Position numbers and translations under genes: made by a program. Under the pieces are notes generated by a model. It saw only the letters and a list, made by a program, of their open reading frames with translations. It did not search any database and had not been told where the DNA came from. A stretch of DNA of 64,000 nucleotides from Anolis carolinensis (taxonomy: Eukaryota), in NCBI RefSeq assembly GCF_035594765.1, contig NC_085843.1, positions 116,909,971 to 116,973,970 on the forward strand, read 5' to 3'. Below are positions 1-42,976 of the stretch, piece by piece; position 1 is the stretch's first letter; every line of letters begins with the position of its first letter.

Positions 1-2794
1 CTGAAGTAAACGGAGCTTAAGAAGTTCTTAAGGTTGTCATCCTCTATCTATTTATTAAGGAATTAACTTCATTAGATTCGATAGTACCAAGATCTGAGTA
101 GACATGAATGGGATTTTGTAGTACCCATTGCTCGTTTCCTTATTTCCTGAATGTGTCTTCTTTAATTCTTATAAAGTCAACTTTATTATTTATACAATTA
201 AAAACTAACAAAAGCTACGATTTGCTTTAAAATCTGAAACAATCAGATTAAATCAGAACACTGTTGAAAATGAAGCATAGATAGATACAAAATATTATTG
301 TTAAACTGCCATGGTTTGTATAGTTGGTTTTGGTTATCTTTAAAAGGAACCATGCCATAAAAGAGTTAGTAGCTTAAAATTTAGGCATTTTCTACATGGA
401 TGAGCAATTCTCTTTGAATTCTCCTTCAAGGGATTATGGGTTTTATGAACAATAGGAGTTTTGCTGTAAGATTTTGAGTGTCGTAAGGTCATCAAGACTC
501 TAATCATCAGCTTTTCATTAGTATGTCCAATATGACATCGAACTGGTTGCTAGCCATGGTGGTGAGACAGGTGTTTTATCTGCATAGGGAATCGCAACAA
601 ACCTGCAGAAAAAAAGTGAACACCCTCTGAATAGACAAAAGCATGCTGTTTTATATCTCTGTAGTTATTTCAGTTCTGGAAACCTGTAATAGCTGAAGAG
701 AATTCTCCTTTCATCGCTACATTATGGATAATTCAGTACATTAGAAGCACTTTTCCTGATGGCTTTATAATGTTTTTAAAAACATTACAATGCAAGGTTT
801 TTCTTTTTCCTCATAGCCTCGTAGAACTATAAGTTCAGTTAATATACCTATTACATAAAAATAAGGAGATGTTCACTGTGAGACCACCAAGGTATCTATT
901 GCTGCTTCTCTGATCATCTGCAAAAAGGCTGTGGAGGTGTGAATAGGTTTCTTCAAATGACATGGGAACAGTGGTGGCTGTATTTTGCCATTGAGACAAT
1001 ATGCTATGACTGAACAAAAAAAAATCCCAAATAGCACACAGAAATGTTATGAGTCCAGCTTATCTGGGGTAATTTAAGAGGTGGGATAATTAAATCATAC
1101 CTTTGTGAAAGACATATTTTCCGTGCAAAAGGCCCCAGTTTTGAACCTAAGCATCTCCAATAAGACAGGGAAATACTTTGAGCTAAAACCAAGAAAGACT
1201 ATTGCCTCAAACCTGCCAAAAATCTAATCATGACTATCATCAGCATCATCATTTATTGGATTTAACCCCAAGGGTGGGATCTAATTTGGCAGACAAGGGC
1301 GGGATGATTCCATTAATAATTTATTATCCTACCTTTCCAGATGGCTTTTAAAATGTCCCAGTTTCTTTCTCCTCTTCCATCATTCCCTCTTTTCCCTCAG
1401 CTTAATCCAATTGCTGCCAGCTGAATTTGAAGTACAAAAGTAATTTGCATTCAATTAACCTGGGGACAGAGGAGAAAAGGAAGAGTCTTGCATTCCCAGC
1501 TGGCCAGACAGAAGTAAGTATCTGCGGCCTCTTCTAGCCTGTGTGTTCTTCCTAATGAATCATTTTGCCATCTTAACCACATTCAGATGTTGTTTGGCCA
1601 CATGCAATCTGATTTTCATCTGTTGAATGTTAAAGGGCATACTGTCAGCCACTGCAGACTACACTAAGGACCTCTTCCCACAGGGCAAAATAGCCCCGTT
1701 TTGCCGCTTTTAGCCAGGGTTTAGATGGGACCTGCTGAGCGCCGTCAGACAATGCAAGGCAGGCCCTGCCTACGTTCCTCTCAAAGTGGAGAGGAAGCAT
1801 CAAAATGTGCTTCCTCCTCCACCACGGGGATGAAAGTGTTTTTCTGGTAGCTCCATGATGGGGGAAAGGGTGGCGGGGCAAAGCGCCCTGTCCTGTCCCC
1901 ACCATTTGATGAGGGAAGGAGGGAGGGCATGTGAGGGCCGTGTGAAGAGGTCCTAAGATAATAAATCCATTTGAATTAGCATAATGTAGCTTCTGATGTA
2001 AGATGTTGAAAATGTATTCAGTTTCACTGGTGGTAATTAGAGCTCCTTGCTTTTGTTACCCTTCATATGCCTTCAAGATGGAATAGGCCTAAAATATGCC
2101 CCCCTCCTGCTGAGCAGAACCCTTAGTTTGTCTCCCATCCCTTCTTAAATGAATAAATATTGGAAATAATGAGAATTTGGGCATATCTCTCCTGGAAACA
2201 GAGCATCAGTATTTACCCTCATGGAGAATTTGCCTTTTGTTCTTAGTGTGTTCTTTTTACTGTGTTTATCCATACTGCAGCTGAAAAAATAGTGGCAAAG
2301 ATAGCATCAAAACTCAAACTATACTGGTTGTACTGCCACTATTTCTTTTTTTGTGAATAGCATCTGTAGCTTTGAATACCACAAACACAAAAAGCTGAAC
2401 GATCCCACTTCCCTTACAGTATTGATGGGAAGTGAATGTAGCTGAGATCTAATCAGACTAAAGATGGAGAGCTACATTTTCCCATATCAATCACCTAGCT
2501 TGCCTTTACAGGTTCTGCAGCCTCTGTTGCCACTAATCTCAATTAGCTTTAAGCTAATTGGTCACATTTTCTATGCAAGTGATCAAATTATGCAGTGATC
2601 CAAAGTTCACCTAAGACTGTGCCTATACATCCATACCATTTCTAGCTTGCTCTATCAGCTAGCTAAGCAGACATGCTTGTATAACAATTTGTACCACAGG
2701 CCAACTTGGATGGCTTAGAAGGCGATTTTGTAGAAGGTAAAACTATGAATGGCGACTATCAATCGGGATGGCTATATATATATATATATATATA

Positions 2795-2976
2795 CCGTAT
2801 TTCTTCAACTCTAAGATATACCCCCCCCCCCCCATATAAACATCTCTAAAACTGGAGTGCATCTTAGAATCAGTAGTGCTTTCTTATACATCAATAAAGC
2901 TTTCTTCTTCTTCTGGTGGTATTGAAACTAATATGTTTCTTACAATCGATGGCATATTGGAATAAAAGGAATACAG
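2795..2976. mobile_element. Degraded Tc1/pogo-type MITE next to a (TA)n run
   Basis: Starts TA|CCGTATTTCTT and ends AGGAATACAG|TA, giving imperfect TIRs with a TA target. Confidence 0.5.
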
Positions 2977-3663
2977 TATTATTTTTAGCATCTAAGGCAG
3001 CGTGTTTCTGAATGCCATTGCTGACAAACATGAGCCAAAGAGAACTGTCATTTTGCTTGCATGTGTCCCATAACAACTGAATGGCTATTGCAGCAAGGAG
3101 GATGCTTGAGTACAAGGCTTTTTGGTCTGAGTTCTTAAGGCTTGAAATGTTACTTTACTAGAAAATAATCATGGATAAGGAAAGAGAGATAACTCTATCT
3201 TTCTGGCCTGACAGCTATCCTACTGGACAACCAGGCTTTTGTTCTCATTCAACATGAGTCTCATTGAACAGGTGTGGAATTCTCCACATGAGGCCAACAA
3301 TATCAATTTGTCATAACCCAGACTACAGTGTGACACAGGAACTAAACAAGAAATAGAAGTCTGGCCAGAGCCAATTATTCCAACACACAATCTCACCAAG
3401 AAGCTGAGAGAAACAGATCTTTTTTGAAATTTGACATATTTTGGAGTTTGGGTGGCCTTAGCTAATGGAATCATAAAAATGGAAACATTACTCATTATAA
3501 CCCCTTGACTTTACCTTCGGAGGGGGAAATAGGATCTATTAATTGGAGACAGAATGAAGCTTTTTTCATAAATGAGGAAAATATTGTAAGAGTATTTAGA
3601 AAAATTGAGGGAATATTTAAAGAAAACTTGGAAAAGGTAGTGATATAAAAGGTGGGGTGCAAG

Positions 3664-3942
3664 CATAGCCAAAGCCAGAAAAAAATTCAGGGGGGGGGGG
3701 TGAAACTTTTTTCAAGCAAATCATGAAGAGTAGTTTCATAACACAAAATAATTTAAAAATTAGGCTCTGTCGATAAACTTCAGTGGACACTCAAGACAGA
3801 TAAACTTTAGTGGACACTCATGGGGATTTGATTAACCAGTTAAAATTCATGAGTAAACCAGGTTTTTTTAAACCTGAAATATTTTTTTGGGGGGGGGGGT
3901 TGAACCCCTAACACCCTCCCCCCCCCTTTGGCTACAGCCCTG
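3664..3942. mobile_element. Non-autonomous hAT-like element
   Basis: 8-bp TSD GGTGCAAG at 3656-3663 and 3943-3950; right end GGCTACAGCCCTG; subterminal G and C runs. Confidence 0.65.
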
Positions 3943-6900
3943 GGTGCAAGGCCTTTGTGAGAGAGTATTATATACAAAAGAATATAGAGTTTAACAAGAA
4001 CAGACAGGATGATATCTATAAGTGTCACAATTATCCATGGTTTGTGTATCCATGGAAAGTTTGGGAATGTATCCTTCATGGAAATGGAAGTCATACTGAA
4101 TAAAGAATATTAGTAAAGTCCATTTCATTGATATCCAGACATTCAACCTTATCACATTTATGAGGTTGTGTTGGACAATACTCCAGCCTCTATGGTGAAT
4201 TGGCGGGGCAGCAGGGGAATCCCAGTGCCCCACGCCCAACCCCACAGAGATGCTTCCTCATCACATGTGGGGAGGTGTAACTGTATGTCTCCCCCCCCCC
4301 CCTTGCTGGCCCAGTTATTCCTTATGGAACACGGGAAGCCTCCCATGTTCTAGGCACAGTGTTCTAGGATGCTTGCGCCCCAGTTCATCGATGGAGCCTC
4401 TCCAGAAGTCAGTGTGTGTTGTGTGATGGGCTCCATGGATCAACTGGGTTGCAAGCATCCAATGATGCTTGCAGCCTCCTCTGTGATTAAACCTTTTATC
4501 AAACTCACATGAGAAGTCTGAAGTCTTGGGTAGGAGGATGGTTGAATGGAGGGAAACCATCTGTTCCCCTACATTCAACATCAGAATATTTCATGCTTGA
4601 CTAGAATCATTCTACTTTTCAAGTGACATTAAAAAGTCTCTCATTTCTAAAAACAACAATTTTTCCCATTTCATCAATTATTGCAATACATGTCAAAAAT
4701 AGAGACTTAGAATTTTTTGGCAAAGGGGGGCAATGTGCACATTTTATGTCATAATAACATGTGTTAGCCTTTAAGGTTCTGTGCTGCTTAGTTGCTTACT
4801 GCAACAGACTATCTAGTTCCTGGAACATATTTTCTGAGTTGTATCACTTTACCACAGTCAAGTACATTATGCCAAATGAATGCTTGTTCAATTAGGTGGA
4901 TGATGGTTTAAGATTCATTGCCATAAATAAATTACACTAGCTCAGCTTTCTGTGAATCACATGTGCATTTGGGATGTGCCTTTGGTTCTGATGAAGTCCA
5001 AAGACCAAGCTATCTTGTGCCAGCACAGAGCAGTTCTGGTGCCTCCGGAATAGGCTTCTCTCAAAATGGCCAAAAGCCCACAGTGGACTTTGCATGTAGA
5101 TTTTCAGATTCAGAAAGGTAAAATAAGGAAGAATAATACTTTCCTTTAAAATTTGTTTCTGTGAAAATGCCCAGTGTGTGACAGGGAAAGAGGGAGTGGG
5201 GTTTTGTCATTGAGAAGTCTACCTGTTTAGTGTCTTTTTTCCTGTGTTTCCTGTTTACTGTGTGCATCCACAGCCACATACAGAAGCTACTTGATTCTTT
5301 TCCTCTTCTTTGAATATGCAGTTAGGAAATGGAATTGCTTGGGGGAAAAAGTATACAAAGGAAGATTAATTATAATAGAACCCATGCGGTGAGAATGGAG
5401 TACTTGTGTGGCACTGCTGGATATTGATATGAAAGAAGACTTATCAGAGGTTTTTCAAGGCTGACTTTTTCCTTTTTAAGGGTTTCTTTTAAGATCAGAG
5501 TCAATGCCGCTTCAAAGCAAGATCTCAAACATATCAGAGCTCTCAGCTCTCTACGCAACTCATCACAGATGATTTTGCCTTTATCATTTCAAACGCTCTC
5601 ATACCATACAATGCCAATTCTAGGAATATAATGAGGGAGCCTGCATTTGATATTTTTACACATAAATCGTATGCTTCATAACAGGTGGCATCATGTTACC
5701 TAAATGTAGATGTAGGCAGTCATCTTGTCCACTACATAGATTCAGTCTGATGGAAATACTGTTCTGTGTACTGAACTCAAAAGGCCAAGATGTACACATC
5801 TGAAGAATCATTTGTATCCAGTTAATAGTGATAGAAACAAGTGCCTCCCTTTCCCCATTAGCTACCAGTTAGCCATATCTTCTTTTTCAGGAAGATAGAA
5901 TGGATGATGTAACTTCTGAGTATATTGTACAGTCAGCATCTGGAAACCATACAGCCTTTAACATTGCTGATTCGACAATACATTCAGTGTGAGTTTTGCT
6001 TCTGTTTAGTAGCTTTTTCTGTTCTTTTGGGCTATTCCTGAAGTTCACCAGAGTTAACCAAACTACATGAAGCAAAAAGTGCCACTGGAAGAAGGATGTA
6101 AGTGTCCTTTCAATCAAAGTCATGTAGTTAACGCTCCACATTTTGGGTCTCTGTTGTGCATTTCTAAGACTATCCACTTAAACTGTCAATGTGTATGATG
6201 TCCTATTCAGTACATCATATCAGATCTAGAGAACAGCAACATTTTGCTCTTGAACAAATTCTCAATTGTAAGATTTTGGTATCCATTTCCACCATGACTT
6301 AAACTGGAATTTCATAGTAATTGCTACACCTCTGGTAGCATGTAAGACTCAACAGAATCTATGCAAATACTCCCATAGAGAAAAATCTGTAATAGCATAA
6401 AAAAAATAGCAAGTTATACATGTGGTTTTCTCCAGTGGATGTTTCATCTTTTAGTGGGGAAGAAGCTACAGCTTCCATAAAGCTTATAGGATATTGACTA
6501 TCAAGGCTTAGGACCTTATTCCATGTAAATACCCCATCTCTCATCCCCTATCCCCCGTTTTCTCACACTTGACAAGATGTAGTTCCACAAAGGCCATCCC
6601 ATGATGCACAGCCATTTCTAGTGACTGCCTGTTGGAATCCATTCTGCCAGCATTCCAAAATGGAGGGAAGACTATTTTTTAAAGGAACTGGATATTATCC
6701 AACTCCTGAAAAGAAAGGGGGGGGGGGAAGCAGGAGGAAGATGGGGAAAGGATGTGGGATGGCTGGCCACCCACAAAGACAAATCTTGCCAGGGTAAGAC
6801 GAGTCCCTACACTTCCAAACACTTTCCCCAGCTTGCTTTCCGCCCATGGAATAACATCCATAATCTCAATGTCATCCAAATTCTTGTTCGCTACTTAATT

Positions 6901-7200
6901 TTAGGATTTCATGCCCACATTTTGAGGTTTGGGGATCATTATTTAGGAAGTGTATAACTACAGAGCTTTATTTTCATTGGCAGACATGAAAGAGAGAAGG
7001 ACCAATAGGCATTTTCTTCTTCTGCATAATATGAGGACTCTAAGGTTCTATTTATTTATTTATTTATTTATTTACAGTATTTATATTTTGCCCTTCTCAC
7101 CCCGAAGGGGACTCAGGGCAGATCATATTGTATACATACAAGGCAAACATTCAATGCCATATGAACATAGAGACAGACACAGAGGCAATTTTAGCCTTCT

Positions 7201-7923
7201 TGTCACACCTCAGGTTAGCTTCACCTTGCTAAAGACACCAGGCTGCACACAGAACGTAGTCTTTTGTAGTTTATTAGGAAATAGGGAAAAGATAGTTCAT
7301 AAAAGGTAAACTTTCGGTTCCAAAAGATAGTTACAAAAACAAGGCTGTAAGAAACAAATCCATAGAAACATTAGACATGAAACAAGGTCCTTTCAAAAGA
7401 AGCCAAAGTCCCAGAAACGAGAATACATCCAGGCTACAAGATAATACAGGAGAGCAGACTTGGTTCTTGATTCAAGCGAGGAAATTGCTTTGATGAAGAT
7501 TTCCCTCTCAGCAGGCTGTTTTAATAGCATAACATGAAGGCATTTCTTTGCCCTTTGAACTCCCTCTTACTTGCTATTCTGAGACTTCTGCGCAACCCCC
7601 AAAATTCCAAATGACTAACCCGATTTAGAGAAGCAGCCTCATCGCTTTCAAGGCCACAGGGCTCATTAGTGTTATCAGGCTGAGGCTGGGAGCTGCTCTC
7701 CCTTTCTGCTTCTTGCACCTGAAAACCATTATCAGTAACAACATCATTTCTTCCTGTGGGAAAGCCTCCCTGCTCCTCATCTCCCACAGCAGGAACACTC
7801 TGCACCTGAATCCCATAATTCCCATCAGAGTCATCTGGAAACTCATCCTGAACCTGAATCCCATCATCTTGAAACTGCATCCCAGAATCCTCATCAGAGT
7901 CACACAAAGGCTGAGTCACAACA
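7201..7923 (-). mobile_element. Solo LTR (723 bp), probably Ty3/Gypsy
   Basis: 5-bp TSD CTTCT at 7196-7200 and 7924-7928; minus strand reads TGTTGTG...GTGACA; TATTAAAA near 7526-7519; AATAAA at 7275-7270. Confidence 0.85.
7521..7922 (-). CDS. U3-spanning open frame (133 aa, acidic, C-terminal RRSLRIASK); putative read-through tail of a retroelement ORF
   Basis: Open from LTR base 2 (T|GTT GTG ACT CAG CCT) to a stop inside the TATA-like box; same frame as in the other two LTRs. Confidence 0.45.
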   Translation of the reverse strand, partial: VVTQPLCDSDEDSGMQFQDDGIQVQDEFPDDSDGNYGIQVQSVPAVGDEEQGGFPTGRNDVVTDNGFQVQEAERESSSQPQPDNTNEPCGLESDEAASLNRVSHLEFWGLRRSLRIASKREFKGQRNAFMLCY

Positions 7924-9962
7924 CTTCTCCAGCTTCCAGCTTCCTGAGGGGATGCTCGATTCCGGCTACAAGGGGACCAGCTGCTTCATCATCCACTCTG
8001 AAGCCGACTTCCTCATTCCGTTCCACAGGCTGGTGGCAGTTTTATGGTGTCGTAAATTTAGTTAAATTAGCCTCCCCACATAGTGGTACCTAAATTTCCT
8101 ACTTGATAGATGCAACTATCTTTCAGGTTGCTTAGGTCAACAATGAGCAGGGGCTATATTTTATTTTAATTGTCGGGTGCTCATTCCGACATGAGCTGGC
8201 CTCGAACTAATGACCTCTTGATCATAGTGATTTATTGCAGCTGGCTACTAACCAGCCTGCACCACATCATCTGCATTATTGCAACTAGAATTAATTGTTC
8301 CCCCTTCTTTCTTACTTAACTGGCCTAAAAGTTAATTTATGTTGCAATAAGGATAAGAACGCATGAGGGATACAAATCAAATCAAATAAACAGATTGTCC
8401 ATTTGATCATGTCATTGAGTTTATTGTTGCAACCTCAAATGAAAGAATGTGCCTGTCATTGTATATCCTTTCTAAAATGTTTGTTTTGTGGATTGCACTA
8501 TGATGCAATAATATTGTGTCGTAATGAATGCAAAGCCTAAGAAATAATGCTAAAATAATATTGCAAGAAATTTATGTGTATTGGTCCCATGTAATATGTA
8601 GAATAGGAATAATGTGACTAGAAACAGAGTCGGAACAGCAGCGTGGGCTTGATTCAGCTTTGATCTTGATATGCCAAGGAAAATATCAATTGAATAGAAG
8701 TTTATCAAGAAAAGAACTTAGAAGAAAAACAGTGGAAAAAGAACATGTAGACACCTAGATACAATATATCTGTAATGAAAGCTCAATTGATTTCATTGTT
8801 GTTCTCTCTGTGATTTTAATACATGGGGAGTTGAGTCACAAGACCTCATAGCATCTTCACCAGGCAAGAGTTCTCATGATACTTTGGTAAAAAATCATTG
8901 CTGTTAAATGGTTAAAAGAATAATATGCATTTATAGTATTATTTTGACCTGTGGGAGCTTAAGCAGAACAAAAACAAATGGACTTCTTTGCTGACAATGT
9001 CTACTTGCTGCTTTCTTCTGTGATACTGATCTTCAAATTGTCTTTCTGTTCAGATAAGAAAGTTTCACTGGTTGATGAGACTCAAAACAGGCTTCCATGG
9101 TAAGTGATCAAATATGCTTATGTTTTAAAACCTACTGCAACGCACAAGGATTAGAAAAAAGCCAGGCTACTTTAAAAGTCAACAATCCTTCTGTTTAATC
9201 GCATGCATGAAATTGCATTTCTTAATCTACTGGAGAATCAAATGGCCTCTTCTGTCTCCTTGCATGCTTATGCTCACATGCTTTTCTGTAACATATGGGA
9301 GGTACATGGTCAGGATATTAAACCTTTGAAGAGCGCTGCTAAATACACAGAAACAAAGGAATTTCTTGCATATTGCTGAAATGCAACTTCCTAAATAGTA
9401 CAAAGAAGCTTTGTATTTCAGAGGTCAGATGCCAGAATATAGTGCATCATTCTGCTTGCAGCTACTTCCTGTCAGTAGCTGATAACGCACCCATTGATTT
9501 TATTTCCTCAGAAACAATTTACTTGCAGGAGGATGCTAATTTTTGCAGAAGACAGCTCCTTGGAGTTTTGTTGGTAGGAAAGTGCTGATGAACTGTGTGT
9601 TCTGTTGTTAGCATGAATTTAGACAAAGAAATAGGTGCTTTTCTACTTCTGATGAATACAGTTTAATTCTCATCCCTTTGTTTATTTCAATTTTAGCTCC
9701 TATCTTTGCTCCTAGAGGAAAGAGCATCCAAAATTGATCAAACCTACACGTTGTTTCATATCACCTGAAACTTGTATAATCATGCCAAACTTTATTAATA
9801 AGCACATCTAAGTTTGTGGAACTGATTTTTTTAAAAAAATCAAAGTATCACACAAACAAGGTTAACTCAGGAATTGCAAGTGTGCAGCAGGAAATGTATG
9901 AAACAATAATAAAAGGCTTCTAAATATGTATTAACTAATACTGAAGCTCTATACAGTGAGAG

Positions 9963-10232
9963 GTCCCAGGTTCAATCCCCGGGAGCGGCGTGAGCGGCCG
10001 CTGTTAGCTCCAGCTCCTGCCAACCTAGCAGTTCGAAAACATGCCGATGTGAGTAGATCAATAGGTACCGCTCCAGCAGGAAGGTAACGGCACTCCATGC
10101 AGTCATGCCGGCCACATGACCTTGGAGATGTCTACGGACAACCCCGTCTCTTCAGCTTAGAAATGGAGATGAGCACCAACCCCCAGAGTCAGACATGACT
10201 GGACTTAATGTCAGGGGAAAACCTTTACGTAC
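9963..10232 (+). mobile_element. Sauria SINE, 5'-truncated
   Basis: Diagnostic GAGTAGATCAATAGGTACCGC...CCCAGAGTCAGACATGACTGG...ACCTTT; 14-bp TSD CTATACAGTGAGAG at 9949-9962 and 10233-10246. Confidence 0.9.
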
Positions 10233-10253
10233 CTATACAGTGAGAGACTATGT

Positions 10254-10841
10254 GTTGTAGTTGTGCCAAGGGGCAGTTCTGGCACTACTGGTAAAATTGC
10301 TAGTAGGAGGAAAAGGGATAATGTTGAGCAGGTGTTTGATGAGGAACAGCAAGTAAAACGGGTTCGGGAAATACTTATGGCTCCTACTGAGGATGAAACG
10401 TTTGAAGGCTTCTCTAGTGAAGAGGACTCAATGCTGGAAGATGATGGGTTAACAGAAAGTAGAGGTCAACTCAGGAGCAAGAGTCAGATGAGGAAAGGGA
10501 AAGAAAGAAGGGAAAGAAAGGGAAAAAAGATTCCGGATATAATTACTGCTCCCATGGAAGATGAAACATTTGAGGGTTTTTCTGGGGATGATGGGTCTGA
10601 GAGTGGGATGGAAGAGGCTGCAGCTTGGACTCAAGTAAATGTGTGTGCAGCACCAGTTTCTGAGGGTGCATCAGAAGACTGGCATACTACTGGTACACCA
10701 GGGGCATGGGGAGATCTAAGTCTTGAACAAAGATGGAGTGATTGGAGGGCTGGTAGGCGAGGTTCACATATGAGATTGAGATCAGCTGTGGATAATGATG
10801 ACAGGGCGGAGGCCTCATCATCATCGGACTCCGAAGTGTAA
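10254..10841 (+). CDS. U3-encoded acidic polypeptide (195 aa) with two EDETFEGF motifs and MRLRSA
   Basis: Open from LTR base 2; homologous to the U3 frame at 42978-43394; the duplicated motif differs only at silent sites. Confidence 0.6.
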   Translation, partial: VVVVPRGSSGTTGKIASRRKRDNVEQVFDEEQQVKRVREILMAPTEDETFEGFSSEEDSMLEDDGLTESRGQLRSKSQMRKGKERRERKGKKIPDIITAPMEDETFEGFSGDDGSESGMEEAAAWTQVNVCAAPVSEGASEDWHTTGTPGAWGDLSLEQRWSDWRAGRRGSHMRLRSAVDNDDRAEASSSSDSEV

Positions 10842-10954
10842 GTTAAAAGTGGAGTTGAAAGTGAAGGTCCCTTGCAGAAGGCAAGGTGTCGTTTTTGGGA
10901 CATTGCTTTGTCGCTGCCTGTTCTCCTTGGGTCCTGGCTGTACAGCTTTGTTTT

Positions 10955-11390
10955 CCTGAATCCGGATTGACTCCTGATGACAGCATTCGTTTCTGCTTTG
11001 GCGTTCCTGACTTGGCATTTCTGGCTTGGCATTCCTGGCTTCCTCTGGCTCCTGGATCCAGTTTGACTCCTGATGGCAGCGTTCATTTCTGCTCTGACGT
11101 TCCTGACTTGGCGTTTCTGGCTTGGCGTTCCTGGCTTCATCTGGCTCCTGAATCCAGTTTGGCTCTTGATGGCAGCATTTGCTCCTGGCTTGGCAATTCC
11201 GACTTGGCATTTTTGGTTTGGCGTTTCTGGCTTCCACTGGCTACTGAATCCGGTCTGCTTCCTGACGACGGCAGCGTTTGCTTCTGACTTGGCGTTTCTG
11301 GCTCCTCTTTGGCTTCTGAATCTGGTCTGCTTCCTCATGACGACATTGCTTGCTCCTGGCTTGGCGATTTTGGGTCCCCTTTTGGCTTTT
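10955..11390 (+). repeat. 96-bp tandem repeat (about 4.5 copies) inside the LTR, downstream of the TATA box
   Basis: Unit starts (C)CTGAATCC recur at 10955, 11051, 11147 and 11243, then at 11315 after a 72-bp unit. Confidence 0.85.
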
Positions 11391-12402
11391 GACAACAGTA
11401 TCGTTTGCACTCATTATTTGAGAGCGTTTGGCTCTTCCCTGACTCTCTGCGCTACAGCATAGCATGGCGCTTGTTCCAGTGAACGTTTTGGTTGCATTTG
11501 AACCGGATTATCAAGCTAGATAATCCAGGTTATTTTTTTGTTCTTGCTTGGTGCCTTTTCTTGAAGCAAAGACGTTTACTTTTGGTTGAAACACTGAAGT
11601 TAAGTGTTTCTGAGTTCAAAATATCATTTAATAAACATTTGTTAACTTTACTTATTGTGTGTGGCTCTTTAAGAGGGGTCTGTATCATGACACTATGTTT
11701 GAGCATAACAATGGGAAGCATCTACTAAAAATGTGTAGGATTGCCTGGTCCCATTTGGTAGTGACATATTCATTGATCATACCATCCAGGGTACCTGTTT
11801 TTTTCTGATGGCCTTCACATCCATGGACAGGAACTAGTCTCCCTCCACCTTAGAGCAGTACCTATATATACCCATAAAACCTCCTTCAGATTGATATAAT
11901 GTGTATGTATATTGATACTAATATATGTATAACTTGAGCAGGTGTGGCTGGCATGCACACTGTCATTTTAGAGATTGAGCCATTATGTACTTTATTGTAT
12001 TTGTATTCAATAGAAGAATAAGGCTTGAGAAATAATTTGATCCTATTCATCAGTAGGAGCATAGTGTCAAGACTGAAGGAAGTCATAGTCTCACTCTATT
12101 CTGCTTTGGTCAGATCTCACCTGGAATACTGTGTCAAATCCTGGGCACCAGAATTCAAGGAGGATATTCACAAGCTGGAAAGTGTCCAGAGATGGATGAT
12201 CAAAATGATCAAAGGTCTGGAAGCCAAGCCCTGTGAGGAATGGCTTAGGGAACTGAGTATGTTTAGCTTGAAGAGGAGAAGGCTGAGAGGGGACATGATA
12301 GCCATGTTAAAATATTTGAAAGGATGCAGGGCCGGTCCAACAATGGAGGCCGTTTAAGCGGCCGCTTCGGGCGCACGTCAAGGGGGGCGCTGTTGAGGCT
12401 CC

Positions 12403-13570
12403 CTCTCGCACTCCTCGGCCCACTCGCACATCTCTCGCACTCGGCCCACTCGCGGCCCTCTCGCACTCGGCTCAATCGCGCCCCTCTCGCACTCGGCCCA
12501 CTCACGCCTCTCTCACACTCGGCCCACTCACGCATCTCTCTCACTCGGCCCACTCGCGCCCCTCTCGCACTCGGCCCACTCACGCATCTCTCTCACTCGG
12601 CCCACTCACGCCCCTCTCGCACTCGGCCCACTCACGCATCTCTCTCACTCGGCCCACTCATGCATCTCTCTCACTCGGCCCACTCACGCCCCTCTCGCAC
12701 TCGGCCCACTCGCACCTCTCTCTCACTCGGCCCACTCGCGCCTCTCTCTCACTCGGCCCACTCACACCCCTCTCGCACTCGGCCCACTCACGCCTCTCTC
12801 TCACTCGTCCCACTCACGCCCCTCTCGCACTCAGCCCACTCACGCCTCTCTCGCACTCGGCCCACTCGCGCCTCTCTCTCACTCGGCCTACTCGCGCCTC
12901 TCTCTCACTCAGCCCACTCACTCCCCTCTCGCACTCGGCCCACTCACGCATCTCTCTCACTCGGCCCACTCATGCCCCTCTCGCACTCGGCCCACTCACG
13001 CCTCTCTCGCACTCGGCCCACTCACGCCCCTCTCGCACTCGGCCCACTCACGCATCTCTCTCACTCGGCCCACTCACGCCCCTCTCGCACTCGGCCCACT
13101 TGCGCCTCTCTCTCACTCGTCCCACTCATGCCCCTCTCGCACTCGGCCCACTCACGCCTCTCTCGCACTCGGCCAACTCGCGCCTCTCTCTCACTCGGCC
13201 TACTCGCGCCTCTCTCTCACTCGGCCCACTCACTCCCCTCTCGCACTCGTCCCACTTGCGCCTCTCTCTCACTCGTCCCACTCACGCCCCTCTTGCACTC
13301 GGCCCACTCACACCTCTCTCGCACTCGGCCCACTCACGCCCCTCTCGCACTCGGCCCACTCACGCCTCTCTCTCACTCGGCCTACTCGCGCCTCTCTCTC
13401 ACTCGGCCCACTCACTCCCCTCTCGCACTCGGCCCACTCACGCATCTCTCTCACTCGGCCCACTCACGCCCCTCTCGCACTCGGCCCACTCACGCCTCTC
13501 TCGCACTCGGCCCACTCACGCCCCTCTCGCATTCGGCCCACTCACGCATCTCTCTCACTCGGCCCTCTCG
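12403..13570. repeat. 26-bp C-rich minisatellite, about 44 copies
   Basis: Unit approximately ACTCGGCCCACTC(A/G)CGC(C/A)(C/T)CTCTC(G/T)C. Confidence 0.95.
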
Positions 13571-13950
13571 CCCTTGCAGCCCTCTTGCCCCTGAACAAGA
13601 CCTGAGGCCAGGCCTCTGGGCCTGCTGCTCCACCTGCACCCTTCCTGGATTCCTCCCGCAATGCCCGGCAGCCCTCCGTGGCTGGAAGGAGCTCTGGCAG
13701 GTCGAGCAGGCCTGTGCCCCTGCCATGCACCTCCTTGGGGACCCTCTCAGCCATGAAGACGGGGCAGGTAGGAACCCGTCCCTGTTCCCAGCATTTCGCC
13801 AGGCATGTCTCCAGGGCAGGCCTGGGCCAACTTGGCAACTGAGGGGGGAAAAGGGGCCTGAGGCTGGGTTGCTGCAGGTTTTTCAGCTGCCTGGCCATGT
13901 TCCAGATGCTGGAACATGTGGGCCTACTCCTAGGATTTATAGTTTCCTAA

Positions 13951-35077: not shown

Positions 35078-35517
35078 AAGGACACATATGAAACATGTTT
35101 GTAGACCACATTTCTAGAGTCACAGCACTAGGTAAATTTCAGCCCCTTTGATGACGTATTTTCCCATTGCTCTATTTGCATGTAATATCCAAAATTCTGA
35201 GCCCATTCCACCATGTACTCTTTATCTTATCCCATTTCCAGATTAGGTTTTAACAAAAGTAGATTCATTTTTGCAATCATATGTTCAGCAGCAGAACACA
35301 ATTGTAATTCAAATTCAGATGTGTTCTCTTGAAAACTATAAATATTTTTATCCTTCTTAAATTTTTCTTTTTTTTTTATTTTTTTTTTATAAATGTTTTT
35401 TTATTATTATACAATTATTGGTTCTATTACATTTTATACAGCACACTCTTTTATAGTTTGCTTAAACATTTTCACCCCACCACGGTGCTCCCCTCCCCCC
35501 GTCTCAAGCCACAATTC

Positions 35518-38500
35518 TTACATATCATCTGTCCAAAACCTCATTTCCTCTTGTGACGGTAACTTTCCTTCCTTGTTTTTTAAACCTTTTACAACAAATT
35601 TTCCCCACACAGCATCATAATCGCTTTGTTTCCATATACCTTTTTTAACCTTTAATATACATGTTAGTTTATCATTTATTGCTAATTTCCATGCTTCTTT
35701 ATACCACTCCTCTATTTGTATGTTCATTTCTTTTTTCCAATTCCTTGCTATAAGTAATCTTGCTATTGTTACTAGATTTGTTATCGCATCTTTCTCCTCC
35801 TTTTTCCATTGTTTATTATTATATAATGATAATAATGCTATGCTAGGACTTTTATCAATTTTCATATTCATTATATCTTCTATTTCTCTAAAAACTTTCC
35901 CCCAAAATTTGTTTACATATTTGCATTGCCACCACATGTGTATATAAGTTCCTGGTTCTTGGCACCCTCTCCAGCAATTTTTTGAATTATTTTTATTCAT
36001 ATATGCTATTCTTACTGGTGTCAGATACCACTTCCATATTAACTTGTAGTAATTTTCTTTAACCCGTATTGATAAATTTTTTAAGTGTCTTTGTCCCCAT
36101 AACTGTTGCCATTCTATTTCGCTTATTTTTATCCCTAAGTCTTCTTCCCAAGACTCCTTAAGGGTATTCTTATTTATTTTCCCCTCCTTCGTTTCGATTA
36201 ATATCTTATAAATTCTACTAATTATACCTCTCAAGTTTTCCTGTTCCTCTACAGCCCTTCCCTTCTGTATTGTTAGCTCAAATTGACTAAGTTGGCTTCC
36301 ATTTCTATTGTTTTTTTCCCAATTTTTAAACCATTGTTCTAATTGTATACAGTGGAACCATGTCAATTTTATTTCTTTAAACTCTTCCAACATCATTTCC
36401 TTCTTCATTCTCACCTTCAGCCAATCCTCTATCCTATCTAATTTATTCTCCCTTAATTTTTTATCCATTACTTTTTTTAAATTTTTAGGGAATTTTTTTT
36501 CCATCACTATTGGGGTTATGATTGACCCCTCCCCTATTAACTTCCTCCTATATTTATTCCACACTTCTAATATATTGCTCAACATTGGGTTTCTAATTTC
36601 CCTCATTTCTTTTTTAGTAAACTGTTTAAAAAATATATTCCAAATTTCATCCTCCACTTTTCCTGAATCATTACTAAGCCAATCTATTCCCTCTCTTTTA
36701 ACCATTCCTTCTATCACCCAGCTTAATCTGCTTGCTTCATAATATTTTTTAATATTAGGTAGTGCTAGTCCTCCCTCTTTTTGCGATCTATACCATAACT
36801 GTTTAGTTAATCTATTTCTTTTACTTCCATTACAATACTTGTTAATCATTTGTTGCCATCTGTTTAGTTCTTCTTCTGTGATTTGAAGTGGTAGCATTCT
36901 AAATATAAAATTTATCTTTGGAAGTATTTTCATTTTTACTAATGCTATTCTTCCAAACCAGGATAGGCGTATGTCTTCATATTCTATTAATTTTTTCTGA
37001 ACCTCTTTCCTTAATGTTACTACATTTAGTTCTTCCATTTTTTTTAAATCCTTTGTTATTAATATTCCTAAGTATTTTAATTCATTCTTAATTCTTATTC
37101 CCATTTTACTCTGCTCTATAAAATCTTTCTCTTCTTCCTTTGTATAATTTATTAACATCATTTCTGACTTATTCCAATTAACTTGTAATCCTGTCGTTTT
37201 CCCAAATATCTCCAAATGTTCTTTTATTTTGTCCATTTTCTCTATTATATTTTCTATAAATAGCAATGTATCGTCAGCAAATAAGCTCACCTTATGTTTC
37301 TCCTCTTTTCCTAGCCCCTCTAGATTCTTATCATTCCTTATACCGTTTGCAAACATTTCTATCACCATAGCAAATAATATCGGCGACAAAGGGCACCCTT
37401 GCCTCGTTCCTCTGGACACTTTTATTTCCTTAGTCACTCCATCATTTATAGTTATCTCTGCTGAATTCCTTGAATAAAATTGTTCTAAGATTCCTTTTAT
37501 TCTATTTCCCATTCCGAATTTATTCAGGATTTCCCTTAATGCCTCCCATTCCACACAATCAAACGCTTTAAAAATATCTAGTGATAATATCCCTGCTTTT
37601 TCCTTCCCCTCTTTAGCCAAATAAATTTTTTTTAGTACTCTCCCTATCAAATTTGACATTAGTCTTCCCTTCACAAACCCACACTGATCTTTTTTTATAT
37701 ACTTATACATGCATTTATTCATTCTATTAGCTATTATCGCAGACAGAATTTTTGCGTCCTGATTAACTAACGATATGGGCCTATATGACCCCGGGTCTGT
37801 TAAATCTTTATCAGGTTTGGGTATTAATATTATTAGTGATTTCCTCCATGATTCTGGTATTTTATCTCCCTCCATTATCCCATTATACATTTTTAATAAT
37901 TTTGGAGTTAAAACTTCTCTGAAGCTTTTATAATATTCTGTCCCTAGACCATCCAGGCCTGGAGCTTTCCCCACTTTTAATTTCTTAATAACTTCCTCTA
38001 TTTCTATCCTCTTAATGGGTTGTTCCAATAGCTCTTTATCCCTCTCCTCCAGCTTGCACTCCCAATTTTCCTCCACATATTTCCTAATTACTTCTATAGA
38101 GCTAGCTTTAGTTTGATATAATTCTTTATAAAATTCTTCAAATACCTTCAGTTTTTCTTTCATAGTTCTACATAATTTACCTGTTTTATCTTTTATCATA
38201 TTTATCATTCCTTCCATTTTCTTTTTTTGTGTTGATTTGGCTAGCATCTTGGAATTCCTATCACTAAACTCAAAGTATTCCCTCCTTAAATAAATTAAAT
38301 TCTCTTGTACTTCATCTATTTCCATTTTATCCAGTTCCTCTTTTTTTGCTCTCAGCCTTGCATAAGTTCGTATATCTCTCTTTATTACATATGTTTTTTC
38401 GATCTCTTCTATTTCTCTTTCTAAATTCCTTTTCCTTTCTTCTTGCCTTTTTTTTAGATTAATTGTCTCTTTTATGCATAACCCTCTAGTCACTGCTTTC

Positions 38501-39375
38501 ATGGTGTCCCATAGAACTCCTTTTGTCACCCCCTTTTCATTAAAGCCCCATATTTCTTGCCATTCTACTTGCATTCTGTCTACTATCTCTTTATAATTCA
38601 ATATTTTCGTATTTAACCTCCACCTCTTCATTTTGTCATAATCACATTTCAGCACCAACTCAATCGATACCAGAGCATGATCCGAAATCTTAATTATCCC
38701 AATATCAGCATTTAACACTTTACTTAACATATTTTTGGAGACAAAAATATAATCTATTCTTGTATACACCTTATGCACCGATGAATAATATGTATATCTG
38801 CTTTCATTCCCTTTTACCAATCTCCACACATCCTTCAGTTGCCATTTATTCATTACTCTACTTAAGTCCGTTATTTCGATATTTCTTGTTTTTGATGTTA
38901 ACATTGTTTTATCCTTCTTTGGGTCCATATAACAATTACAATCTCCTCCAAATATTACATTTTGTTGGTGATAATTCTCTATTTGCTCTAATACTTTTTC
39001 GTAAAATTCTTGCTGTTTAACATTTGGTGCATATACATTTACTAATACATATTTTTCTTCCCCTATTTCACCATATATTATTATGTATCTTCCCTCTTCA
39101 TCTTTCAATACCTTATTTATACCCAAATTGCATTTCTTTGCTATTATTATAGCTACACCTCTTGACTTTGATGACCCAAAAGATTTCTCATAATTCCTTA
39201 TCCAGCTCGACTTTAGTTCATTTGAGCCCAGTTTATTCTGATGCGTTTCCTGTAGGAAGATGACATCCGCCGCGTCCTTCTTCAGTAGGGCTTCAATCCG
39301 CCTTCTCTTAATTACCGTCCCCAACCCTCTCACATTAAGTGTTGAAATTCTTAATTTATGAGACATCATTTCCAT
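35518..39375 (-). CDS. L1 ORF2p (APE endonuclease, reverse transcriptase, CCHC motif), 1285 aa
   Basis: LNVRGL, LQETH, GGDCN, RIDY, SDH; KAPGLDG, YRPISL, KAFD, QGCPLSP, FADD; CWRGC...HMWWQC. Confidence 0.97.
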   Translation of the reverse strand: MEMMSHKLRISTLNVRGLGTVIKRRRIEALLKKDAADVIFLQETHQNKLGSNELKSSWIRNYEKSFGSSKSRGVAIIIAKKCNLGINKVLKDEEGRYIIIYGEIGEEKYVLVNVYAPNVKQQEFYEKVLEQIENYHQQNVIFGGDCNCYMDPKKDKTMLTSKTRNIEITDLSRVMNKWQLKDVWRLVKGNESRYTYYSSVHKVYTRIDYIFVSKNMLSKVLNADIGIIKISDHALVSIELVLKCDYDKMKRWRLNTKILNYKEIVDRMQVEWQEIWGFNEKGVTKGVLWDTMKAVTRGLCIKETINLKKRQEERKRNLEREIEEIEKTYVIKRDIRTYARLRAKKEELDKMEIDEVQENLIYLRREYFEFSDRNSKMLAKSTQKKKMEGMINMIKDKTGKLCRTMKEKLKVFEEFYKELYQTKASSIEVIRKYVEENWECKLEERDKELLEQPIKRIEIEEVIKKLKVGKAPGLDGLGTEYYKSFREVLTPKLLKMYNGIMEGDKIPESWRKSLIILIPKPDKDLTDPGSYRPISLVNQDAKILSAIIANRMNKCMYKYIKKDQCGFVKGRLMSNLIGRVLKKIYLAKEGKEKAGILSLDIFKAFDCVEWEALREILNKFGMGNRIKGILEQFYSRNSAEITINDGVTKEIKVSRGTRQGCPLSPILFAMVIEMFANGIRNDKNLEGLGKEEKHKVSLFADDTLLFIENIIEKMDKIKEHLEIFGKTTGLQVNWNKSEMMLINYTKEEEKDFIEQSKMGIRIKNELKYLGILITKDLKKMEELNVVTLRKEVQKKLIEYEDIRLSWFGRIALVKMKILPKINFIFRMLPLQITEEELNRWQQMINKYCNGSKRNRLTKQLWYRSQKEGGLALPNIKKYYEASRLSWVIEGMVKREGIDWLSNDSGKVEDEIWNIFFKQFTKKEMREIRNPMLSNILEVWNKYRRKLIGEGSIITPIVMEKKFPKNLKKVMDKKLRENKLDRIEDWLKVRMKKEMMLEEFKEIKLTWFHCIQLEQWFKNWEKNNRNGSQLSQFELTIQKGRAVEEQENLRGIISRIYKILIETKEGKINKNTLKESWEEDLGIKISEIEWQQLWGQRHLKNLSIRVKENYYKLIWKWYLTPVRIAYMNKNNSKNCWRGCQEPGTYIHMWWQCKYVNKFWGKVFREIEDIMNMKIDKSPSIALLSLYNNKQWKKEEKDAITNLVTIARLLIARNWKKEMNIQIEEWYKEAWKLAINDKLTCILKVKKGIWKQSDYDAVWGKFVVKGLKNKEGKLPSQEEMRFWTDDM

Positions 39376-39661
39376 TTCCCTTTAAAAGCTTTTTTGTGGC
39401 TTGAACCAATGTGAACCCTTGACCCTTACCCTCCCCTACCCTTGCCCACCCTTCCCCCCTCCTCCCCCTTGATCCCCCCCTTCCCTCATTCCCCCCTTCC
39501 TCCCCTTCCATTCTTCGGGACTCCTCGTCCCAATCATGGCCCCCGGCCTTCCCAATTGGGGAGGGGGAAGGCGAAGTCATCCCATGGCCCAGAGTCTCCC
39601 TCCCCCCGAGTGCTCATTTTAAATTCAATAATAAATTTAATTGCAGTGTTACGCTTTCTTC

Positions 39662-40909
39662 TTACATCCCGATTCCTCCAGTGGCGCCAAATAATTCCTC
39701 CGTTACTCCTGCTTCCGAACCCTTCTCCTCCTCCTCCTTTCGATCTCTCTCTTGTTTTCTTATTATACCGAGCTCCTCCAATAGTTGATGTCCTTGCTCC
39801 AATGAGTCTATTCTATATCTCTTGCCTTTCCATTGGAATTTGAGAAAGATAGGATATCCCCAAGTGTACAAAATTCCGGCCTTCATTAATTGGATCGTAA
39901 TAGGCTTCATTGAATATCTCCAATTCTTAGTTTCAGTACAATAGTCATTGAATATCTCCAATTTTGAGTCGCCCATCTTTAAATATTCTGGGTTCTTCTT
40001 TAATATTTTCATCAAATTTTCTTTCTTTACGAAGTTTTGAAATCGGATTATTATATTCCTAGGAATTATTTTATTTCTTCCACTCGGAAGGCGATGAACT
40101 CTCTCGATATCTAATTCTGACCAGTTTAATATCGGCGTGATCTTTTGCAACCACTTCAAAATCTCGGTTTTCAGATCTTCTTTCTTATTCCCTTCTGGGT
40201 AGTTTCTAATTATTGCGTTGTTTCTTCTTTGATTATCTTGCATATACACGAACTTTCTTTCCACATCTGAAAGCCTATTTTCATTTTTTTGCGTTTGTTG
40301 TTTGAGTACAAGTTGTTCCTGTTTATTTTTCCCGATTTCAGATTTATTTGTTTGTATCTCTCCATGTGCTGTTTTCAAACTTTCTCTTATTGTCTGAAAT
40401 TTTTCATCTGAGCTTTTCCTTTCTGCCTCCAATTGTGCTTTTATTTCTTTGTTGCTGGTCAGAATTTCTTGCTTCAAAACCTGGATCTCGCTCTTCCTCA
40501 TTTCTCTTTCTTTATCAAACATCAAATTCAAATTCAAATTCATTTCCTTTGTTTGTCTTTCACTCTCCTCTTTGATCAATTCCGCTATTTTATTTAACAA
40601 TTGGCCACTGCCCATTTCATTCCCCATTTCTTTCCTCTCTCTGCTCTCACTGCTTCCTTTTAGTTCTGCTGATAAACATGGCAGAGAGGTAGAAATGCCT
40701 CCTCCTCCTATTGCCCCCTCCGCTTGAGGGGGGGTCCGTTTTAATTGTTTCCCCTCCTTAATTGAGGTGGGGGGACTTCTTTTAACAATGCTCATTTCCT
40801 TGGGGATCTGAGAAACCCTTTCCAATCTAGAAAAAGATCTGTCCGAAGGCCTTGTGCGTGACCAAAGAGGATTTTTTGGGATATCCTGACTTTGTTTATT
40901 CCTTCTCAT
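39662..40909 (-). CDS. L1 ORF1p (coiled coil, RRM, CTD), up to 415 aa
   Basis: Coiled coil followed by RRNNAIIRNYPE, IERVHR, PRNIIIRF, IFNDY, WGYP. Confidence 0.93.
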   Translation of the reverse strand: MRRNKQSQDIPKNPLWSRTRPSDRSFSRLERVSQIPKEMSIVKRSPPTSIKEGKQLKRTPPQAEGAIGGGGISTSLPCLSAELKGSSESRERKEMGNEMGSGQLLNKIAELIKEESERQTKEMNLNLNLMFDKEREMRKSEIQVLKQEILTSNKEIKAQLEAERKSSDEKFQTIRESLKTAHGEIQTNKSEIGKNKQEQLVLKQQTQKNENRLSDVERKFVYMQDNQRRNNAIIRNYPEGNKKEDLKTEILKWLQKITPILNWSELDIERVHRLPSGRNKIIPRNIIIRFQNFVKKENLMKILKKNPEYLKMGDSKLEIFNDYCTETKNWRYSMKPITIQLMKAGILYTWGYPIFLKFQWKGKRYRIDSLEQGHQLLEELGIIRKQERDRKEEEEKGSEAGVTEELFGATGGIGM

Positions 40910-42976
40910 TCACCTCCCTTCAGTTGCTCCTTCCGTATTTATCAATTTTTTTTTTTTATAAGTACTTAGTTCCCCCTTTCGACGCAGTCCAAAAAAAAAA
41001 CAACCCTAGTACGCCTTGCAAGGCCTTGCAACATTATTGTAACATTATTTCCTTTGGAGCCTTTGGAACCAGGGGATTCGCTTTTAATCTGATGAGGAAA
41101 GCTCACTCCTTCCTCAAAGGAGGCTTCCAGATGATTATATTCAATCTTGCTAATTATTTTAATGCTTATTTGAGCTACAGACTATTTTTCTTCTCCGGCT
41201 TCGCACGCGTTCGCACTCATCATGTTACTTTCGCTTTTGCTTTCAGCCTGCTTTCAGCCTGCTTCGGCCAGCTTCCCCTCACTTCTGCCAAAGCTCATAA
41301 ATCAAAGCAATTAAGTGGTAATAGATTACCTTTTCAGGTTTCTTGTATGCTCAACACTCTCATCTCCCTTTTAATCCATAAAGATCCTTCCTCGATCCCT
41401 TTTTCACTGCTTTTCGCTTTGTTTTCTCAAGAGCTGAAAGGAAAGACGTCTTTACCCGGCCATAGCTGACTCCGCCTCCCCCTTCTTCTTAAATTTTTCA
41501 ACAATTTGTTGATAAGAAAACCACTGAAAGTTATGGCCTCCTTCAAATTAATTTTATACTTCTTTTGATCCTACTTCAAAAGATCTTGATAAGTTATCCA
41601 TCTTTCTGTACAGGTCATTCCCTGTCTATAACAAGCTTCTTGTGATGTAGTGCAAAGGCCCTGTTCTCCCATCCTATATAGTGAAGAGAAAGAGAAATGT
41701 CACTTGTTTAAAACTAGGTTTTTGTCCAAAAATATTTTTTGTTTGTTTTTGTGTTTTTGCTATGATGTATGCGCTAATAAAAAAAGAACCCAGCATCTAG
41801 ATAAAATGTTTATGCTTGTGCAATGAATTGTGTTTAAATAGACAATGTTGTTGGTGCAACCAACAGGAACATTTTCTCTGTTTCTCTCCTGAAGTTATAA
41901 ATTAATATTAATGTTATTTAAATAAACATCAGTTATTGAGAAAACTGAATTAATTTCAAATTCCTAGCTAGTACTTTAAGCTGAGTATAGGTCCTCATGC
42001 CTGATCTATATGAAAAAGCAGTAGCTTAGGGACAGAAGTTGCAATATGCATGGAAAAATGTATCAGTTTTACCTGCCAGCATCTGCAGGAAATCCTGGAA
42101 ATTGCTACTATTAAGTGTAGACAAAAGTGAGCTAGATGGACCAACAATTTGAGTAAATAGTAGCTCCCCTTTGACAGTATACAATAAATACTGTCACGAA
42201 AATGATACTTCATGCTTTTTTGGTTGTTTTTCTCTAAGAACAATCTGTTTTGATACTTGCAGAGTAGGATGAGACTGATATTAAGTCCACTTTCTTTCAG
42301 GAAAGAAAAAGCTCACTTCGAAACACAGAGAGTGATGAGAAGAAAAGTTGAACTATAATTTGCAATGCAATAAAGTCAGATGCAGAAAATTGGATGACTC
42401 ATCATTAAGAAAACCTGCCTATCCCACTTCAGGAGGCTGATATAGGAAGGAAATGTATGCATATTAAAAACCTGTATCATTGAGGTATGTTGATTGCCAC
42501 GTGACTTTCATGTGTGAATGTGCCCTCTCAGAACAAACTCCAATGCAACTCACAGATATGGCCTTTACAACCCTTTAATGAGTGGTTGTTAGTAGAGTTG
42601 CTTTGTTCACATAGCTAGGAACCAGCAAATGACAATTGGTTTAGTGGTGAAAAATCAAAATATGTAAATGTACATGATCCTGTTTATATAGCACAAGAGA
42701 ACATGACAAATTTCACATGCTTGTTCTTATTTACCTTTCTTCAAAGTTTATCTATGTGAGAATATCCATGGTATCTCTCACCTATGTGTGTATTGGCTTT
42801 GGAACGGTAGTTTTAGAAGATCTTTAGCCTTCTCTGTGAAAGAGTGATGGTACATCACCAAACTACACTCCCATGTAGACCTGATAAGATGTGTGCAGAT
42901 ATCGCCAAAGGGGAAGGCAGTCCATGCTGCTGCCAATCTTGTCGCAGGGTGACCAAGACATAACCCTTATCATTTT

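Follow-up and report, generated by a model that had tools for sequence, protein, structure and literature searches.

The 64,000 nucleotides of Anolis carolinensis DNA analyzed here (contig NC_085843.1, positions 116,909,971 to 116,973,970 of the forward strand; hereafter the window) contain a solo long terminal repeat (LTR) of a Tf1/sushi-type Ty3/gypsy retrotransposon whose U3 region encodes two peptides resembling the linear motifs of host proteins that bind LEDGF, the product of PSIP1. We find that the motif-bearing peptide is the U3-encoded end of Pol, at the position where related elements carry a chromodomain, and the pattern of substitutions indicates purifying selection on the protein sequence of the motif in the Pol frame. 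It is almost certain that the peptide is an integrase tail maintained by selection. We propose, with a probability of about 0.6, that this tail docks on the integrase-binding domain (IBD) of LEDGF or HDGFL2 and steers insertion to transcribed chromatin methylated at H3K36. Binding to LEDGF or HDGFL2, as predicted, is quite probable in itself; an influence of the tail on the choice of insertion site has an even or slightly better chance of being real.

Both motifs lie on the plus strand, as do all window features described below unless otherwise indicated. Motif 1 (10359 to 10412) consists of hydrophobic helix positions, A-P-T, an acidic linker and FEGF; its peptide, VREILMAPTEDETFEGFSSEED, begins at 10362, and the first F of FEGF is at 10401. 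The T-E-D-E of this linker agrees with the CK2 consensus. Motif 2 (10527 to 10580) is read in the same frame within IPDIITAPMEDETFEGFSGDD, which ends at 10592 and has the first F of its FEGF at 10569. The original prediction, made from the letters of the window alone, of two peptides with a helix, an acidic linker and FxGF is thus confirmed, both being in a single frame; of the span that it gave, 10362 to 10590, the start is right and the end should be 10592. It had overlooked a third motif, a single one at 43068 to 43121 (first F at 43110), which lies in a U3 frame (42978 to 43394) ahead of an inferred RNA start at 43432, inside a solo LTR of a sister family (42977 to 44148). We refer to the family with two motifs as family 1 and to this sister as family 2. 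Both family 1 motifs match the LEDGF-binding consensus [E/D]xExFxGF, as quoted second-hand in 10.1101/2023.01.30.526367. The six frames of the window contain these 2 matches, whereas 200 block-wise dinucleotide simulations of it averaged 0.02 and never exceeded 1; the motifs arose by duplication, however, and are not independent events. Plain FxGF is far less specific, occurring 25 times in the six frames against a simulated mean of 16.5, with 5 of the 200 simulations as high. No PDB chain was matched by the motif peptide in a search up to E 10, and no Pfam family was matched in the two U3 frames.

The frame that carries motifs 1 and 2 is open from 10254 to 10841. Copies that keep an internal region were located by junction patterns. 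At 20 of the 24 family 2 junctions bearing the GGGGGGATAG tract, a single open frame holds both the GPY/F end of the integrase and the FxGF, and the same frame is open in six of seven two-LTR copies of the subfamily to which the window's family 2 LTR belongs. The family 1 pattern found 10 junctions, of which two come from other families without FxGF; the remaining eight represent family 1 and its sisters, four of them fully open and four interrupted by a stop, frameshift or deletion. Family 1 proper accounts for three of the eight: one copy (L074) is open through both motifs, with 132 amino acids of integrase end and 192 amino acids encoded by the LTR in a single open frame, one is in frame with a stop and one is internally deleted. 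Since the Pol frame continues across the polypurine tract and enters the 3' LTR, the motifs form a C-terminal tail of the integrase and not, as first predicted, a stand-alone LTR peptide.

The elements have the Tf1/sushi domain order, with Gag followed by protease, reverse transcriptase, RNase H and an integrase with a GPY/F-SH3 module. Pfam recognizes protease, reverse transcriptase, RNase H, integrase and SH3_Tf2-1 in a natural family 2 Pol (P0001) and DUF4939 and Ty3 capsid matches in the Gag of a natural family 2 element; it found no chromodomain in P0001, where the tail begins immediately after the GPY/F end. The family 1 internal region was matched by tblastn, and its pol is approximately 71% identical in DNA to that of family 2. 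When used alone as a query, the tail retrieved 1 protein, from Anolis, among 741 candidates of 670 to 2134 amino acids. Some Pol pieces are listed in databases as host genes (P0273 to P0275), namely two uncharacterized LOC proteins with the tail and a reverse transcriptase fragment named as an OGFRL1 isoform.

Priming signals place the frame within U3. An 11-nucleotide complement of the family's primer-binding site (PBS), as expected for self-priming, is present in the element's own LTR in two of three copies of FxGF families (the third, L108, has none); the window's family 2 LTR also carries a complement, and that of the chromodomain family is 10 nucleotides long. The complement sits about 30 nucleotides 3' of a TATA-like element. 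In the window's family 1 LTR, such an element (10842 to 10849) directly follows the stop codon, and the complement, defined from the PBS of a natural copy (L102) with one G-U pair, lies at 10874 to 10884, the putative U3/R border. We therefore place the RNA start near 10874, 33 nucleotides past the stop at 10841. As the stop precedes this start, the frame would be wholly within U3, and its translation would depend on genomic RNA, of which it occupies the 3' end, and not on transcripts from a solo-LTR promoter. The window's own family 1 solo LTR is decayed and is likely unable to express the motif peptide from its own promoter; it appears to be a fossil of an integrase tail.

Conservation of the motif extends across family 1 and its sister families, as the original prediction would demand. 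We gathered 74 natural instances with a search pattern that prescribed P, the S/T of the linker and some of the hydrophobic columns and left F, G and F free. All 74 have both F residues and 70 have G, with E, M, Y or L at the variable position. Hydrophobic residues were retained at -13, -10 and -9, some of these columns being fixed by the pattern, and position -5 is T or S in 69 instances, which the pattern partly imposed. Pairwise alignments made from the LTR start, independently of the motif pattern, gave ratios of nonsynonymous to synonymous change (pN/pS) of 0.09 to 0.38 in the motif windows in 11 of 13 comparisons, the other two (0.56 and 0.74) involving decayed copies, and of 0.73 to 1.08 in non-coding LTR; because the compared pairs share ancestry, these and the following values are descriptive and not tests. 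Between motif classes, pN/pS was 0.28 to 0.57 in the Pol frame versus 0.77 to 5.3 in the other two sense frames. At the FxGF codons, comparison of motif 1 with motif 2 gave a pN of 0.03 with pS saturated. In family 2, the first part 3' of the motif is also constrained (pN/pS of 0.17 to 0.35). Tryptophan-rich stretches follow the motifs in both families (window positions 10680 to 10760 and 43190 to 43260).

The most likely partners are suggested by what is known of TFIIS N-terminal domains (TNDs) and of TND-interacting motifs (TIMs), also called IBD-binding motifs (IBMs). According to a review (PMC9987994), a TIM consists of a helix, an acidic linker and an optional FxGF, TNDs have one binding mode in common and FxGF, present in all known ligands of LEDGF and HRP2 (HDGFL2), is essential and has a unique role there. 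As FxGF is characteristic of LEDGF and HRP2 ligands, those two proteins are the expected partners, and not IWS1, TFIIS, ELOA and MED26, which the original prediction had also included. The anole genome encodes PSIP1, one exon of which is 100% identical to Anolis proteins, and an HDGFL2-like gene; it also contains an intron-less PSIP1 retrocopy with a stop inside the IBD (L067, C2:143718346-143718648). Two CDCA7-family genes were located, one on C6 with two motifs, of which the first is KLADVFNAPSDDEDFFGF, and one on C1 with the motif EEMAEIFKEDSDDESFCGF. The element motifs are in the same register as KLADVFNAPSDDEDFFGF, to which the window's two are identical at 7 and 9 of 18 positions, so that the match in spacing to CDCA7L, originally proposed, is borne out by the genome's own genes. 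Because this likeness is limited to 18 codons, capture from CDCA7L mRNA and convergence are indistinguishable. The proposal that the element mimics a host motif is strengthened by conservation, host-matched spacing and position on the integrase, a position that fits a tethering role better than could originally be known; the identity of the peptide had to be corrected to that of a Pol end.

Modeling with ESMFold2 of anole PSIP1 (residues 400 to 495) with the motif 1 peptide from the window, a check of a kind suggested with the original prediction, gave a score of 0.47 versus 0.01 for the best control, with runs agreeing in at least 81% of contacts and a partner pLDDT (predicted local distance difference test) of 61. 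In a calibration without peptides, 51 of 78 solved pairs and 2 of 108 mismatched pairs attained the mark used for such predictions; at scores of 0.60 or lower, just 5 of the 78 solved pairs reached it, as did all 4 mismatches that passed. A score of 0.47 lends weak support, and it may reflect memory since similar complexes have been solved (6emo, 6emp, 6emq, 6emr and 5yi9). A single-sequence fold of the integrase end with its tail had a mean pLDDT of 44.8, which is too weak to show a helix.

The distribution of tails among relatives suggests how the motif may have been acquired. We gathered 278 related proteins and aligned 264 to the GPY/F end; by a crude pattern, 184 of these 264 have a chromodomain at the tail position. 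FxGF occurred within the first 260 tail residues of 11 proteins. Eight are TIM-like, three being from anole (query included), four from Podarcis muralis and one from another record; three were rejected, with FxGF inside the chromodomain, in a duplicated reverse transcriptase or in a non-acidic tail. In the Podarcis proteins and the other non-anole record, a divergent chromodomain is kept and, judging from protein sequence, the motifs are 5' of the polypurine tract, whereas in the anole FxGF families the chromodomain is lost and the motifs are 3' of it. Trees separate the anole and Podarcis-type groups, and a single clade was rejected by the approximately unbiased (AU) test with a p of 0.015 (LG+G4, 18 of 26 rows, with P0342, P0349, P0296, P0288, P0402, P0378, P0131 and P0320 dropped; the Gekko row in the tree has no usable tail). 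This rejection implies either two gains or one gain and several losses. The anole FxGF families descend from chromodomain-bearing relatives, lack the domain and are not chromoviruses in the strict sense. Our tentative view, held at somewhat less than even odds, is that squamate Ty3/gypsy integrases gained a linear mimic of the LEDGF motif at least twice. On this view the anole motif would have replaced a chromodomain, exchanging the element's own reading of a chromatin mark for a ride on LEDGF or HDGFL2 into active gene bodies, the Podarcis combination of chromodomain and motif would be an intermediate and the whole would be a non-viral convergence on the strategy of HIV.

Several other features of these relatives were observed. 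A chromodomain family (P0331 and P0349) also reads into U3, where DIVMPDEEENLGF looks like the motif minus its first F and could be a precursor, a remnant or chance. This family is very young (3519 LTR starts; LTR pairs 0 to 0.3% apart in all 13 copies measured), and one of its copies is nested within a family 1 element (L056, 1908 to 8335). The tails of P0331, P0317, P0378 and L072 carry RRS-x-R-L/I close to the C terminus, which resembles the nucleosome acidic-patch anchor of HMGN and may be another chromatin motif that this clade mimics. The U3 frame of another family (L071, 1510 to 1620) reads EDFYECSE, which resembles an FFAT motif.

Comparison with known systems places the anole element among several precedents. 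Host TIM/IBM ligands (CDCA7L/JPO2, MLL1, POGZ, IWS1, MED1, CDC7-ASK and, in the fly, JIL-1) likewise combine a helix, an acidic linker and FxGF; the motif of the element differs in being encoded by mobile DNA, on an integrase and within an LTR. POGZ, which takes its name from the pogo transposon, belongs to the host and is not an LTR element. With other Tf1/sushi (V-clade) chromoviruses, the anole families share domain order, a DUF4939/Ty3 capsid Gag, the GPY/F-SH3 module, a self-priming PBS and a 5-bp duplication, but here an acidic tail of about 140 to 195 amino acids, encoded in U3, takes the place of the chromodomain. HIV integrase contacts LEDGF through a folded core dimer and not through a linear FxGF motif. 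Ty1-AC40 and MLV-BET are experimentally shown short-motif tethers of integrases. In the Ty5-Sir4 tether, six C-terminal integrase residues bind a host chromatin protein (PMC7175516); this is likewise a short C-terminal tether, with another partner and other chromatin, and was shown by experiment, whereas the anole tether is predicted. JPO2 carries two TIMs, a tandem pair like that of family 1, and the review's section on viral mimicry, in the parts read, names only lentiviral integrases (PMC9987994). The string "transpos" does not occur in those parts. Lentiviral integrases are held on active chromatin by the same cofactor that we predict here, the outcome for the anole element being predicted from sequence (PMC9987994). 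Coding sequence that extends into the 3' LTR with a targeting motif other than a chromodomain is already known from group A of the plant CRM elements (PMC3059260). That clade (CR motif) is a plant one associated with centromeres, and its partner is not named in that study; the anole element is a vertebrate Tf1/sushi type with a recognizable host motif. We found no account of a transposon-encoded TIM in the literature searched, which was mostly outside subscription journals; the proteome-wide motif lists of the primary TIM papers could bear on novelty.

If the proposed mechanism is correct, genomic RNA ending in U3-R would be translated into a Gag-Pol that carries the tail, and the tail would remain on the mature integrase after processing. 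The helix, the acidic linker, possibly phosphorylated by CK2, and FxGF would then occupy two pockets of the IBD, with the two motifs of family 1 contributing avidity, and the PWWP domain of LEDGF or HDGFL2 would bring the integration complex to active genes methylated at H3K36. A contrast between solo and full-length copies was considered as evidence of targeting and was dropped, as a difference in age explains it wholly or in part. Nearly all copies of the chromodomain family have two LTRs (1696 junctions for its 3519 LTR starts), and family 2A is mostly solo, 7 pairs being obtained when the first 100 of its 575 starts were taken. Of 20 single LTRs sampled from family 2A, 16 have matching duplications and the other 4 lack a called end. 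LTR pairs of the chromodomain family, however, differ by 0 to 0.3% versus 0.1 to 1.2% in family 2A (with an outlier at 18.7%), and nearest neighbors of solo LTRs differ mostly by 1 to 2%.

A number of observations weigh against LEDGF-directed insertion. Only 8 of 125 listed copies are on small contigs, which hold 15% of bases, a scarcity contrary to a plain preference for gene-dense DNA, although these figures come from ranked lists with no control family. The protease may remove the tail from the integrase. The chromodomain-bearing sister family has no FxGF and is more abundant in the genome (1696 junctions), so the motif is not required for success. The spacer between the motifs is constrained as well (pN/pS of 0.22 to 0.37), and selection is therefore not confined to the motif; the 74 instances were picked by a pattern, and shared ancestry limits what the pN/pS values can say. 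At the conserved second E of the consensus, family 2 has D instead; motifs from Podarcis either have a linker of another length or are rich in S/T.

Four other explanations were weighed. The tail may bind LEDGF or HDGFL2 for other ends, such as integrase stability, chromatin or nuclear retention or shielding of a new copy from silencing. The sequence evidence speaks for a selected docking motif and is silent on what docking achieves, the fly LEDGF relative JASPer stabilizes its FxGF ligand JIL-1 (PMC6877644) and the scarcity on small contigs gives no sign of gene-dense targeting. We nevertheless regard this explanation as unlikely, since the position of the chromodomain is occupied by a putative targeting domain in plant CRM elements (PMC3059260) and LEDGF binding leads lentiviral integration into gene bodies (PMC9987994). 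Slightly less probable again is that the motif binds a different reader, either IWS1, TFIIS, ELOA, MED26, PNUTS or another reader of acidic-aromatic motifs. The common binding mode of TNDs would allow this, and our modeling covered LEDGF alone, so that a passing score does not single out one family member; the unique role of FxGF for LEDGF and HRP2 and the exact match in spacing to CDCA7L-type LEDGF ligands argue for the docking on LEDGF or HDGFL2 that we propose.

Short motifs arise easily, and acidic tails without FxGF are present in sister families, so the motif could be due to chance or to constraint on the DNA, for instance on a duplicated enhancer in U3 whose translation is acidic by coincidence. 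This is very improbable, as an excess of synonymous over amino acid changes is confined to the Pol frame, a comparison that largely refutes it, and as the motif is common to families 1 and 2, the LTRs of which are unalignable as DNA. The least credible explanation is the literal version of the original prediction, in which a separate peptide is produced from the LTR itself, solo LTRs included. Its frame is open here over its full length and remains long in the majority of the 12 best copies, but it precedes the inferred RNA start, its first in-frame ATG (10377) falls within the helix of motif 1 and so cuts the motif, it is continuous with Pol in copies that keep the internal region and the window copy has rare damaging changes (a proline in the helix of motif 2 and M at its linker T), together with spacer indels that offset one another. 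An integrase tail that docks on LEDGF or HDGFL2 remains our preferred explanation.

The family 1 solo LTR (10253 to 11692; 1,440 bp, TGT...ACA) is flanked by a 5-bp duplication, CTATG, at 10248 to 10252 and 11693 to 11697, and contains imperfect tandem repeats of 96 and 72 bp that vary from copy to copy (10954 to 11381) and a candidate polyadenylation signal, AATAAA (11630 to 11635). A genome search gave 1218 first-look candidates, of which 40 were scored; these, the window itself excepted, were 89 to 92% identical. The family 2 LTR is young, with ATTTT duplicated on both sides and its best 40 matches 98 to 100% identical. A SINE-like (short interspersed element-like) repeat of Sauria type adjoins the family 1 LTR (9957 to 10228), has more copies in the window and shows a flanking duplication; it supplies the first codons of an apparent 210-amino-acid frame and does not belong to the LTR frame. 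Four runs with guessed RNAs over 1300 to 12250 gave no clear host splice joint among the joints listed, and one contig end before 10252 in these runs reads as the polypurine tract of the family. The window also contains a tandem array of a 26-bp unit (12310 to 13700) and, by inspection, a long L1-like long interspersed element on the minus strand (35380 to 41480) with frames of 415 (39662 to 40909) and 1287 (35518 to 39381) amino acids and an A-rich end.

If our proposal is correct, this element would be a transposon ligand of LEDGF or HDGFL2 that exploits the linear motif of its own host, and LEDGF tethering would not be peculiar to lentiviruses. It would also provide a vertebrate case of a targeting module inside an LTR, as in plant CRM elements, with the same DNA serving as promoter region and coding sequence. 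A single genome holding both a chromodomain family (about 1700 junctions) and closely related families with an FxGF tail (hundreds of LTRs with the exact pattern) allows young insertions of both to be compared, making it testable whether the positions of vertebrate retrotransposons are due to targeting or to later selection.
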